A stretch of DNA of 64,000 bases from Vulcanimicrobiota bacterium (GTDB lineage: Bacteria; Vulcanimicrobiota; Vulcanimicrobiia; Vulcanimicrobiales; Vulcanimicrobiaceae). A model generated the notes under the pieces. That model worked only from the letters and a program-made list of their open reading frames with translations, was not told the DNA's origin and did not search any database. Positions 54,371 through 57,281 of the stretch are shown piece by piece. Each line of letters begins with the position of its first letter. The first letter of the stretch is position 1. The position numbers were made by a program, and so were the translations under genes. Where the stretch lies: positions 416,001 to 480,000 of the forward strand of contig CAVZQC010000002.1 in assembly GCA_963777315.1 (NCBI GenBank), in the 5' to 3' direction.

Positions 54371-54763
54371 ATGCCGCGGTATCTTCACACTTCGATCTTC
54401 GTCGACGATATGCAGCAATCGATCGACTTTTACACCGGGAAGCTGGGCCTGCGCCTGCTCGATGGACCGTTCCACTATCCGGGCAACGCCGACATGGCGT
54501 TTGTCGGCGCGGACTGGAACGCCTACATCGAACTCGTCTACGATCTGGAAGCGCATCCGCCGTACGAAACGGGAAATCGCTACGAGCATTTAGCGATTGA
54601 AGTGGAGGGCGACCTGGCAGCCTATGTCGCGCGACTAAAAGCTGCGGGCGTCAAAGTCCTGCAGGACGTCAAACGCTCGCCGGGTGGTACTCGCGCCATT
54701 GCGTTCGTCCAAGATCCCAACGGCATTCCCGTCGAACTGCTCGAACCGCGGTCGGAACACTAG
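54371..54763 (+). CDS. VOC family protein (glyoxalase I-like)
   Basis: SD GGAGG; YLHT..V.D...SIDFY, IEL, HLAI, FVQDPNG..EL. Confidence 0.9.
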   Translation: MPRYLHTSIFVDDMQQSIDFYTGKLGLRLLDGPFHYPGNADMAFVGADWNAYIELVYDLEAHPPYETGNRYEHLAIEVEGDLAAYVARLKAAGVKVLQDVKRSPGGTRAIAFVQDPNGIPVELLEPRSEH

Positions 54764-55833
54764 CGGTAAACGAACGGATCGGCGGGCGGCGCGATGCGCT
54801 CGATCCGCCGCACGTGCAGACGTAAGCCGTCCGGCGCCTGCACGAGAACGCCTTGCGCGCGAATCCATCCGCGCAGCCACGGTGCGCTGCGTTCCAGGCG
54901 CACGACCACGGGCGCAGCGTCCGCACGACAGCAGGTGATTGCAAAGCGCACCAGCGTAGTGGCGCTGCCGGTTTGGGTAGCCAGTCCGGTAAAGTCCATC
55001 GGCTCGCCGGCGAAGGCCTGGTCGAGTGAGGTTTCCGTCGCGTGATATTGGGGCGGCGGCGCGCACAGTATAACGCCGGCCAGCATGATCGCGGGCGCGA
55101 TGCGCAATCGGATCGATCGGCGGTCGCGATACTTGCACGCAAAGGACGCACATGCAATCGCGCAGGGCCATAGAGCTGCGGCAATGGCCGGATGCACCAG
55201 CCCTGCGCCGCCGCGCGCAGCGGCCAGAGCGCAGGCCAAGGCCGCGATCATGTATCCCAGCGCATCGTGCAGACCGGCGCCGTCGTTTGCAGAGCGCGTC
55301 CAGACTCGAAGATCCGCGATGCCGGCAACGCACAAAAAGCCCGCCGCCGTTGCCGGGAGCGTGCCGCGCATTGCGGCAGCCAATCCTATCGTTCCTAAAC
55401 CACACGGCGCGAGAAAGAATCCAGCAACGGCGCCTGCGGCAAACGCCGTGCCGGATGACGTCCGTGCGGCAAGCAGCACGCTTGCGAGTAGCGCAGCGAC
55501 GCCGCCGATGCACGCCGGAACGGTCAGCGCCGACAATTGCGAGAGGACCGATGTTTCCCGGTGCTCGCAGAGCCGCGTTCGCGCAGCAATCCGCTCGACG
55601 ATGAGTGCTGCGGCAAACCTTGCGCCTGCGATAAACGGTCCGAAGATCAGCACCGTCGCCGCGGCGGCCGGAAGTGAACGCGCAGACGGTCCCGCCCCAC
55701 ACCCGCATCCCAGGTACGGGACCATCCACGGGCTCTGCCGTAGCGGCATGCGTGCGAGCACCGCTGCGGCAACAACGAACGGCGCACTTTCGAGCAGCGT
55801 CGCTGCCGACGTAACCAGCCACGCCGTGACCAC
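54760..55833 (-). CDS. Membrane protein: permease-like N-terminus fused to DUF1980 (YcgQ)-like C-terminus
   Basis: LLESAPF, GCGC, APC; RFAITCCRADA, W...QG, PADPFVY; start GTG inferred. Confidence 0.7.
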   Translation of the reverse strand: MVTAWLVTSAATLLESAPFVVAAAVLARMPLRQSPWMVPYLGCGCGAGPSARSLPAAAATVLIFGPFIAGARFAAALIVERIAARTRLCEHRETSVLSQLSALTVPACIGGVAALLASVLLAARTSSGTAFAAGAVAGFFLAPCGLGTIGLAAAMRGTLPATAAGFLCVAGIADLRVWTRSANDGAGLHDALGYMIAALACALAAARGGAGLVHPAIAAALWPCAIACASFACKYRDRRSIRLRIAPAIMLAGVILCAPPPQYHATETSLDQAFAGEPMDFTGLATQTGSATTLVRFAITCCRADAAPVVVRLERSAPWLRGWIRAQGVLVQAPDGLRLHVRRIERIAPPADPFVYR

Positions 55834-55892
55834 GCCGCATCCATCACACGCAATGTCCCGTTTCACTAGGGCGTAGGCGTTTGTGTATGCTG

Positions 55893-55919
55893 TGAAACAA
55901 AAGTTGTAGGTCGGCCGTA
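55893..55919 (+). promoter_or_regulatory. ECF sigma-type promoter
   Basis: TGAAAC-N17-CGTA. Confidence 0.55.
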
Positions 55920-55987
55920 TAAGGCGGTGTAGAGTAACCGATGGAACGCGAAAGCGCTCCACAACCAACGATAAAGGATTTATTACC

Positions 55988-56155
55988 GTGAAACCCGCTG
56001 CGAAGCCGCAAGCGAAAACTGAAAAACCTGAGCAAGCCCCGCGTCCGACGATCGCGCTGCAGAACGTCATCGTCACCGCGCCGGATACTGCCGCATTCAG
56101 CGGATGGGGTCCGAAGGTCGCCGGCGCCGGGAGCATCGTCAAAAACTGGAATTGA
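55988..56155 (+). CDS. 55-aa small protein (below ORF-track cutoff)
   Basis: SD AAAGGA plus GTG; MKPAAKPQAKTEKPEQAPRPTIALQNVIVTAPDTAAFSGWGPKVAGAGSIVKNWN. Confidence 0.65.
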   Translation: MKPAAKPQAKTEKPEQAPRPTIALQNVIVTAPDTAAFSGWGPKVAGAGSIVKNWN

Positions 56156-56168
56156 GCGAGATTTAAGG

Positions 56169-56306
56169 TTTCATCCGTATGATTCGACCTGCGGATGGAA
56201 AATGGGCACAGTCGTCCTCCACCGACGTGCCCATTCGACACCCTACCTCGTAGAGTGCAGCAAGACGGGTTGGCGATGACTCCACCATCGCCAACCCAAT
56301 TTTTTT
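56169..56306 (+). ncRNA. Candidate structured sRNA/3'UTR with C-rich loops ending in an intrinsic terminator
   Basis: Hairpins 56169-56200, 56201-56235 (loop UCCUCCAC), weak 56239-56257, 56267-56297 (12 bp, loop ACUCCAC) plus U-run. Confidence 0.6.
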
Positions 56307-57281
56307 CAGCTCACGTACGGTTCGTACGGCAGAACCGGCTCGAGGATGCGATTGACTTCATCGAAAACCGCAGAATCGAGACTCAGATCGCCGGCGCTCA
56401 CGTTATCCTCAACATGTTCGACTTTCGTCGCACCGACGATGACGCTCGTGACGGCCGGCTGGCGCAAACACCACGCCAGTGCGAGTTGAGCGAGCGAACA
56501 GCCGGACTGCTCCGCCAATGGTTTGAGTTGCCCGACGGCATCGAGCACCGGCTGAGTGAAGTAATCTTCCATCATGTCCGCTCCGCTGCCGGCTGCGCGC
56601 GTTCCGGCCGGTGGGCGTTTGACGTCCGTGTATTTGCCGGTAAGGATGCCCATGGCGAGCGGCGACCAGACGACGTTGCCCAAGCCGTATGCCGCGCACG
56701 TTGGAAGCACGCGCTGCTCGATGCGCCGCCAAAGCGCGCTGTACTGCGGCTGATTGCTCACCGGCACTGCCCATCCGCGCGCACGGCATAGCGTGACCGC
56801 GCCGGCGATTTGATCCGCGTTCCACTCCGAAACGCCCCAGTAGAGAATCTTGCCTGCCCGCACGAAGTCGTTCATGATCTCGCAGATCTCTTCCAGCGGC
56901 GTTTGCGTGTCGTAACGGTGACATTGATACAGATCGACGTACTCTACCCGAAGCCGGCGCAGCGAATGATGGAGCTGGTCGCGAACGTGCTTGCGCGATA
57001 GGCCGCGTTCGGTAACGGAATCGCCCATCGGAAAATAGACCTTCGTTGCCAGAACGAGCGCATCGCGGTTCAAGTCTTTGAGAATCGGGCCCAACACCTC
57101 TTCGGCCGCGCCGCGGGCGTAGACATTCGCGGTGTCGATGAAGTTCACGCCGCGTTCCCACGCGCGCATCACGCAATCGCGGGCAGTCTGCGCGCCGACG
57201 TTGCCGCCGTAAGTCAGCCAAGATCCCAAACCCACTACGGAGAGCTCGAAGGCCGGAGTGTCCCAGACTGCGGTACTGCAC
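56306..57281 (-). CDS. Aldo/keto reductase (Kv-beta-like); +1 frameshift near 57250
   Basis: MQYRSLGHSGL in one frame, LSVVGLGSWLT, DTANVY, ATKV, GLSRKH in the next. Confidence 0.88.

Follow-up and report, generated by a model that had tools for sequence, protein, structure and literature searches.

Layout of the locus and its promoter region

The window, that is, the whole 64,000-nt stretch of DNA that was analyzed, contains a unit on its forward strand. As listed in Table 1, the promoter, hairpins, Shine-Dalgarno sequence, 55-amino-acid (aa) open reading frame (ORF), and terminator of the original prediction were all present in the sequence. We regard it as virtually certain that they form a real, conserved, and previously unannotated unit of the Vulcanimicrobiota (Eremiobacterota). 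Among the titled loci with a relative, 29 of 35 belonged to Vulcanimicrobiota, Eremiobacterota, Baltobacteraceae, or a taxon within these, and one of 35 was titled otherwise. The genomes are related, and the counts given below are thus not independent.

Table 1. Features of the unit and its convergent neighbor (positions within the window)
Feature	Position	Strand	Evidence or remark
Candidate ECF (SigW-like) promoter, TGAAAC-N17-CGTA	55893-55919	+	TGAAAC 55893-55898, CGTA 55916-55919
Second, σA-like −10 hexamer, TAGAGT	55930-55935	+	TAnnnT here in 53/63 promoters; putative role
5′ hairpin, GAAA loop	55942-55961	+	Folds here; probable 5′ stabilizer
Shine-Dalgarno-like AAAGGA	55973-55978	+	9 nt before GTG at 55988
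55-aa ORF	55988-56155	+	Homologues, codon usage
AU-rich stretch 5′ of HP1, candidate RNase E site	56160-56171	+	Mean AU fraction 0.81; putative cleavage
HP1, conserved basal stem (UUUCAUC/GAUG), variable top	56169-56201	+	Covariation, G-U pairs
HP2, loop UCCUCCAC at 56215-56222	56203-56234	+	All 12 pairs change on both sides
Near-invariant single-stranded linker, CUCGUAGAGUGCAGCAA	56247-56263	+	Candidate seed or protein site
Intrinsic terminator, loop ACUCCAC at 56279-56285	56267-56306	+	Terminator scan
Convergent aldo-keto reductase, neighbor outside the unit	56306-57235	−	Pfam PF00248

In the terminator scan, the terminator hairpin spans positions 56267-56297 and its U-run reaches 56306. A hairpin of varying sequence occupies the position of the 5′ hairpin in relatives, as judged by eye. 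The 16S tail encoded in this genome reads CACCTCCTTT. The convergent aldo-keto reductase gene was kept at 42 of 48 loci, and the divergent permease gene seen beside the unit here occurred at 1 of 48. This permease (54760-55860, minus strand) adjoins the unit in this genome only, and its C-terminal part matches DUF1980_C/TIGR03943 weakly. The usual upstream gene in relatives encodes a DUF5916/CBM9 protein or a winged-helix/TPR regulator. A minus-strand ORF at 56163-56294 was discarded, as its frame was not conserved on inspection.

We compared the promoters of the relatives. TG[AC]AACAA was found in 63 of 71 loci and was then used as the alignment anchor; because of this use, its conservation is partly by construction. 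GTA lay 18 nt downstream of TGAAAC in 59 of 63 promoters and TA at +14/15 was kept in 61-62 of them, whereas the full CGTA was kept in 15. The predicted TGAAAC-N17-CGTA promoter stands as ECF-like, without general conservation of the C of its CGTA box. In Bacillus subtilis, CGTA is tied to σW, the promoters of which read TGAAAC ... CGTA in the passages cited (PMC5758882). The promoter here shares these two boxes, and the ECF gene of this genome scores best on the SigW model, albeit at 138 bits against a cut-off of 209; it differs in that the −10 C is not conserved and in its extra conserved TA and TGTAnnnT boxes. This SigW-like ECF gene has TGAAAC-N17-CGTA upstream, and a DUF4097/DUF6249 operon divergent from it has the N16 form of the motif. 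The σW-type arrangement, in which a motif is common to the unit and to the promoter of its presumed cognate ECF gene, was thus found in this genome. In this genome, the motif lies upstream of four predicted genes at the N17 spacing and of at most one at each other spacing, a thin enrichment.

On this evidence, ECF control of the unit is likely, and the ECF-like promoter suggests that the unit would be induced by stress. Alternatively, (G)TA, which recurs at an interval of 11-12 nt, may mark the site of a winged-helix regulator. The σA-like −10 hexamer would place the transcript start at the 5′ hairpin.

The peptide family and its gene contexts

The 55-aa peptide has a variable N-terminal half, a P-x-I-S/T-x-x-R-V-I segment, an FxGWGP[K/R]V motif (FSGWGP, encoded at 56096-56113), and a C-terminal WN. 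Matches were found in 12 of 61 genomes, this one included (E ≤ 1e-6). A profile search returned 62 matches, 45 of which were short proteins; the remaining 17, long repeat proteins as judged by length and one sequence read, were left out. Residues F, G, W, and G of the motif were invariant and P was nearly so. All four codons occurred at each Gly and at the Pro of the motif (69 loci), and this synonymous variation indicates that selection acts on the protein. The ORF of the original prediction is thus conserved at the protein level.

The motif, in the form FxGWG[P/V][K/R]Φ and with Pro-to-Val variants, defines an unannotated multi-copy family, and copies that share a locus carry between 2 and 13 residues after it. 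A back-translated pattern of the motif was found in 33 of 41 genomes, against two matches for the reversed control, and all 30 loci fetched from this search were short ORFs. With a stop-anchored pattern, 188 of 301 phylum genomes matched. Besides this genome, they comprise 187 of the 231 relatives within the class, and none of the 69 genomes from outside the class matched; the control gave zero matches, and 3 of the 150 matches listed end in TGG without a stop. The 55-aa ORF had no family in Pfam or NCBIfam, the ESM Atlas gave no usable match for either peptide, and a PDB sequence search with the peptide returned ClpA alone (E ~0.8). AlphaFold2 gave no confident fold (pLDDT 65, pTM 0.20). In viral contigs, tblastn detected no relative, and a pattern search gave one match there. 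GWGP also occurs in ComX of Bacillus licheniformis, according to the part of PMC5385187 cited here, which we take as coincidence. A type I toxin-antitoxin system was rejected, as the peptide is hydrophilic and the minus strand has neither a terminator nor a sigma70-type promoter site.

Unpublished genomes contributed to some of these data. G028, G019, G021, and G029 (loci L007, L008/L069, L010, and L011) are included in the peptide alignment and locus counts; G019, G059, and G048 in the ytrA-leader counts and alignment; and G008 in the set of fetched loci and the tally of 61 copies described below. Unpublished genomes are also within the genome tallies for the peptide, the RNA model, the motif patterns, and the winged-helix/TPR regulator. 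The RNA alignments are free of them, and no conclusion depends on them alone.

Two paralogues were identified in this genome, one heading a ytrA-like GntR operon and the other heading msrA. The former (C2:562652-562767, plus strand; L048:4652-4767) is an FxGWGPKI ORF situated 12 nt before the ytrA-like GntR gene. Its promoter contains TTGACA and a GTACTAG/CTAGTAC inverted repeat, and the same leader occurs across the class; we know of no established inducing signal of ytrA. A copy of this leader lies within a few kb of the locus in several genomes and ~90 kb away in this one. The msrA paralogue (C4:~639753-639857, plus strand; L049) is an FxGWGPR ORF whose promoter carries a TAACTAA/TTAGTT inverted repeat. 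An FxGWGP leader opens the operon that runs divergently from the SigW-like ECF gene in at least four other genera (L245, L250, L251, and L253). The leader recurs at L327, followed by the same gene as in these operons, and is absent from this place in the present genome. A sister family (L017, L018, L206, and L268) has two motif ORFs per locus, one of them ending in FGGWGVRI. Of 131 relatives within the class, 75 have a match to the winged-helix/TPR regulator (E ≤ 1e-60), compared with none of 69 others; because several peptide-bearing genera had no match, it is only a candidate partner.

Sixty-one other (non-class-A) copies were then considered together. In 27 of them, ytrA begins 2-23 nt after the ORF, in 22 a different gene follows, and in 12 no co-oriented gene was detected downstream. 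The motif is kept with neither an RNA-model match nor a co-oriented downstream gene at L014, L020, L331, L332, L334, L335, and L336. Some copies at the locus of the present unit are likewise retained with short tails and are not matched by the RNA model. Judged by these sequence matches, the peptide family is class-wide and occurs mostly without the RNA. The conservation of stand-alone copies, the variable tails, and the Val variant favor action of the peptide in trans, which appears fairly likely, and the tight spacing before ytrA keeps a role in cis alive.

Such a role, which we consider doubtful, would be that of a ribosome-arrest or leader peptide: a pause on FxGWGP or at the stop codon would control reinitiation at ytrA and other downstream genes, and at this locus the paused ribosome would shield the 3′ RNA or position its cleavage. 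The distances to ytrA agree with this, as do the 45 of 61 copies that stop two codons after Pro/Val, the stop-to-HP1 distance of 13 nt in 36 of 58 loci, and the Gly-Pro ending, which RAGP shares. Known arrest peptides, as described in the passages of PMC10987492 cited here, also have just a C-terminal motif in common across varied contexts. By contrast, Val replaces Pro in some ytrA leaders and other copies, the tail length varies among same-locus copies, and the stand-alone copies retain the motif. Furthermore, the proteome shows no depletion of GWGP (3 observed versus 3.7 expected; small numbers and approximate gene calls), whereas RAGP and RAPP are depleted relative to composition, ~3-fold (11 versus 36 expected) and ~10-fold (2 versus 23), respectively, again with small numbers.

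The 3′ RNA

The segment at 56160-56306 is predicted to fold as HP1, HP2, a weakly folded linker, and the terminator (z = −6.75; 0 of 200 shuffles as stable). The RNA alignment comprised 38 of the 40 loci with HP1 and linker, from 53 distinct loci, two loci with an extra hairpin being excluded. At L037 and L067, an extra hairpin lies between HP2 and the linker and begins with a partial copy of an HP2 arm. Conserved loops on varying stems had been proposed as a check, and covariation was indeed found: in the structure derived with RNAalifold, both partners vary in 20 of 24 pairs (38 sequences), and 92.5% of cells pair. The corresponding share is 78.1% after shuffling (0 of 500) and no more than 51.5% in slid controls. 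Because the structure was derived from the same, related sequences, these values are strong support rather than a probability.

Nothing else in the RNA alignment is as well conserved as the linker, which was absent from the earlier description; its columns are invariant and unpaired in the consensus (38 sequences), and it was present in 60 of 70 distinct loci of this type. Every one of these 60 loci carries at least one CUCCAC, located in HP2 only (33 loci), in both HP2 and the terminator (25 loci), or in the terminator only (2 loci, which have lost the HP2 copy). Counted by place, the motif occurs on the 5′ side of the linker in 58 of these 60 loci and in the terminator loop in 27 of 60. Four of the 10 linker-less loci retain a CUCCAC, and the HP1 loop has none. 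The pair of CUCCAC loops that was first noticed is present in this genome but is not a rule of the family. TGAAAC, the promoter box, has its complement in the HP1 basal stem (56169-56174), and CGTA and TAGAGT both occur within the linker; a promoter mimic is conceivable. The linker itself was rejected as a −10 box, having no conserved −35 by inspection and reading GAGAGT in one genus.

The plus strand, on which the RNA had been placed, is favored by the consensus fold (−25.9 on plus versus −18.3 on minus, where HP1 is largely lost) and by the G-U pairs of HP1 (69 versus 7 in 56 loci). HP1 is more stable on plus in 50 of 56 loci, and the whole-segment minimum free energy (MFE) favors plus in 17 of 40 loci and minus in 23.

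No Rfam match was found across the locus at E ≤ 10, and 13 loci of relatives gave three weak matches far below gathering scores, in line with the prediction of a new RNA. 6C RNA and RNAIII, further analogues, were compared with the unit through Rfam alone. The covariance model detected one copy each in 15 of 151 class genomes, all of one family and all at the peptide locus. An exact linker search returned 117 metagenome and viral loci, 34 with the ORF upstream; the others, among the matches listed, were without hairpins or incomplete. At L330 (G091), the linker is kept with a partial tandem duplicate, with no hairpins or terminator, just 5′ of another gene, which we take to be PhzF-like. The RNA thus occurs in part of one family and the peptide throughout the class; therefore, the RNA was probably gained later than the peptide family, as judged from this distribution. 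Together, the covarying RNA and the coding ORF bear out the proposal of a new small-protein and 3′-RNA module.

The genome encodes Hfq, RNase E/G, and RNase J. Features of 3′-UTR-derived sRNAs dependent on Hfq and RNase E were found here, namely Hfq and RNase E themselves, an intrinsic terminator, and an AU-rich candidate cut site. A conserved unpaired stretch just 5′ of the terminator and an anti-SD-like loop are typical of base-pairing sRNAs. Target scans, for which our own approximate gene calls (2655 genes) were used and which miss short or imperfect seeds, gave nothing above background: the strongest duplex between the seed and a start region (−27.2) was inside the range of eight shuffled seeds (−20.2 to −27.5), and perfect 12-nt complements in 26 genomes numbered five non-self versus eight control matches, none conserved. 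The top linker duplex, upstream of a DUF5916/CBM9 gene, was dropped because it was not conserved, and a DUF4188 gene with a good site was dropped because it occurs in 3 of 35 genomes. GTGGAG was not enriched among SD variants in this genome, and GTGGAG-SD genes were not clearly richer in signal peptides (7 of 28 versus 110 of 567, by a crude heuristic). No anti-SD target was found, and repeated anti-SD loops are not what defines the RNA; as a candidate for the seed, the invariant linker is preferable. Overall, we incline toward a base-pairing sRNA.

An alternative, which we rate as rather unlikely, is that the 3′ RNA serves as a protein-binding decoy or a cis stability element, with the linker and the loop as protein sites. 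The searches without a complementary target, the sequence conservation of the HP1 basal stem, and the survival of the L330 linker without hairpins are what it would lead one to expect. The unpaired conserved linker 5′ of the terminator, the anti-SD-like loop, and a genome with Hfq and RNase E speak for base pairing, and short or imperfect seeds would escape the scans.

Interpretation and comparison with known systems

The explanation that we prefer, at about an even chance, is a dual-output stress transcript yielding a trans-acting motif peptide and a 3′ sRNA. The SigW-like ECF promoter and the second, σA-like −10 would drive an RNA of ~365 nt ending at the intrinsic terminator. The peptide, presumably disordered, would act in trans by docking via FxGWG[P/V][K/R]Φ on a protein specific to the lineage; the first candidates for this partner are the linked winged-helix/TPR regulator and YtrA. 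By cutting the AU-rich site 3′ of the stop codon, RNase E could free a ~140-nt sRNA or a ~60-nt linker-plus-terminator piece. The invariant linker and a CUCCAC loop of this RNA would base-pair with mRNAs, probably assisted by Hfq. Several points count against this transcript model: no target was found, a co-oriented gene follows 49 of the 61 non-class-A copies, which fits cis action equally, the plus-strand MFE is favored in a minority of loci, L330 has the linker without hairpins, and the promoter enrichment is thin. More tentatively, it is possible that the peptides integrate signals across the class as the first ORFs of unrelated stress regulons with one shared cytoplasmic partner, or that they are a portable arrest motif. 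The SigW-like ECF, YtrA, msrA-regulator, and other regulons would then each yield the same docking peptide, and the transcript of one lineage would also have gained an sRNA arm.

A RiPP precursor, composed of a leader and an FxGWGP core with its enzyme encoded elsewhere, is improbable, as had been supposed. The variable N-terminal half, the conserved Trp-containing core, and the several dispersed copies would suit it, and the genome has 12 radical SAM matches over the cut-off and two PqqD-like proteins. Nevertheless, the inspected copies have no recurrent neighbor of the maturase, protease, or exporter type, and copies take the first-ORF position in regulatory operons. One copy is near a YcaO-like ORF, but a search of this 90%-complete genome detected no YcaO. 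Of the two PqqD-like genes, one belongs to a separate, lasso-like cluster and the second is without an evident cluster. The lasso-peptide-like cluster (C4:902952-907732, minus strand) contains a PqqD-like protein, and its other ORFs presumably encode kinase-like, glycosyltransferase, B2-like, and nucleotidyltransferase-like proteins. Least probable is a functional minus-strand RNA whose GGA loops form a CsrA sponge: CsrA is encoded, the minus-strand loops read GUGGAG(GA), and the whole-segment MFE leans to that strand, but the consensus fold and G-U pairs oppose it, and csrA lies between fliW and flagellin, an arrangement of the protein-partner type of control.

Under the preferred reading, the unit represents a candidate regulatory sRNA family together with a class-defining microprotein family. 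Neither was found described for this soil phylum in the open-licence literature, of which supplementary tables of uORFs or RNA motifs could hold a description. The unit has a small-protein and 3′ sRNA design, and the class-wide microprotein family may be its more novel part. As the peptide is located ahead of ytrA, ECF, and msrA operons, the idea of a common peptide signal and that of a new arrest motif are both directly testable.

The arrest peptides SecM (RAGP), ApdA/ApdP (RAPP), the RQH family, and PepNL are short upstream ORFs in varied contexts, according to the cited portions of PMC10987492 and PMC11890864. As far as those portions go, the present family resembles them in sharing only a C-terminal motif, in its varied gene contexts, and in the Gly-Pro ending. 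Unlike them, it has no Arg at −3, its Pro can be Val, none was seen upstream of sec/yidC, and many copies are without a downstream gene. It is not a RAPP/RAGP-type arrest peptide by motif, GWG[P/V] differing from R-x-[GP]-P with its essential Pro. In B. subtilis, YtrG, described in the cited part of PMC13729164 as a monotopic membrane protein, is encoded by a small ORF that is first in the ytrA operon. One paralogue class here occupies the same place, but the peptides have no hydrophobic membrane segment by inspection, and the likeness noted is one of position.

The closest layout is that of CcaF1 (DUF1127)-CcsR1-4 in Rhodobacter sphaeroides, which comprises an alternative-sigma promoter, a small protein, 3′-UTR-derived hairpin RNAs, and a terminator; CcsR1 is cut by RNase E at GUUUCC, and cuckoo RNAs are defined by a CCUCCUCCC motif in each hairpin loop, all as given in the cited parts of PMC8034643 and PMC4615179. 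To that extent, the unit shares the layout, the C-rich anti-SD-like loops, and 2-4 adjacent hairpins with variable stems, and GUUUCA at HP1 resembles the CcsR1 site. The loop here reads (UC)CUCCAC instead of CCUCCUCCC and is missing from HP1, the invariant linker is extra, each genome has one RNA copy, and the phylum is different. The peptide has no DUF1127 match and occurs mostly without the RNA, and DUF1127 (PF06568) was not found in this 90%-complete genome. A cuckoo RNA is thus rejected by loop motif, DUF1127, and Rfam. Of the DUF1127-cuckoo analogy first drawn, the layout holds, but not the tie between peptide and RNA. The module is analogous, not homologous, to CcaF1-CcsR, and a small protein joined to a C-rich-loop RNA in a unit unrelated to cuckoo/CcsR suggests convergent design.
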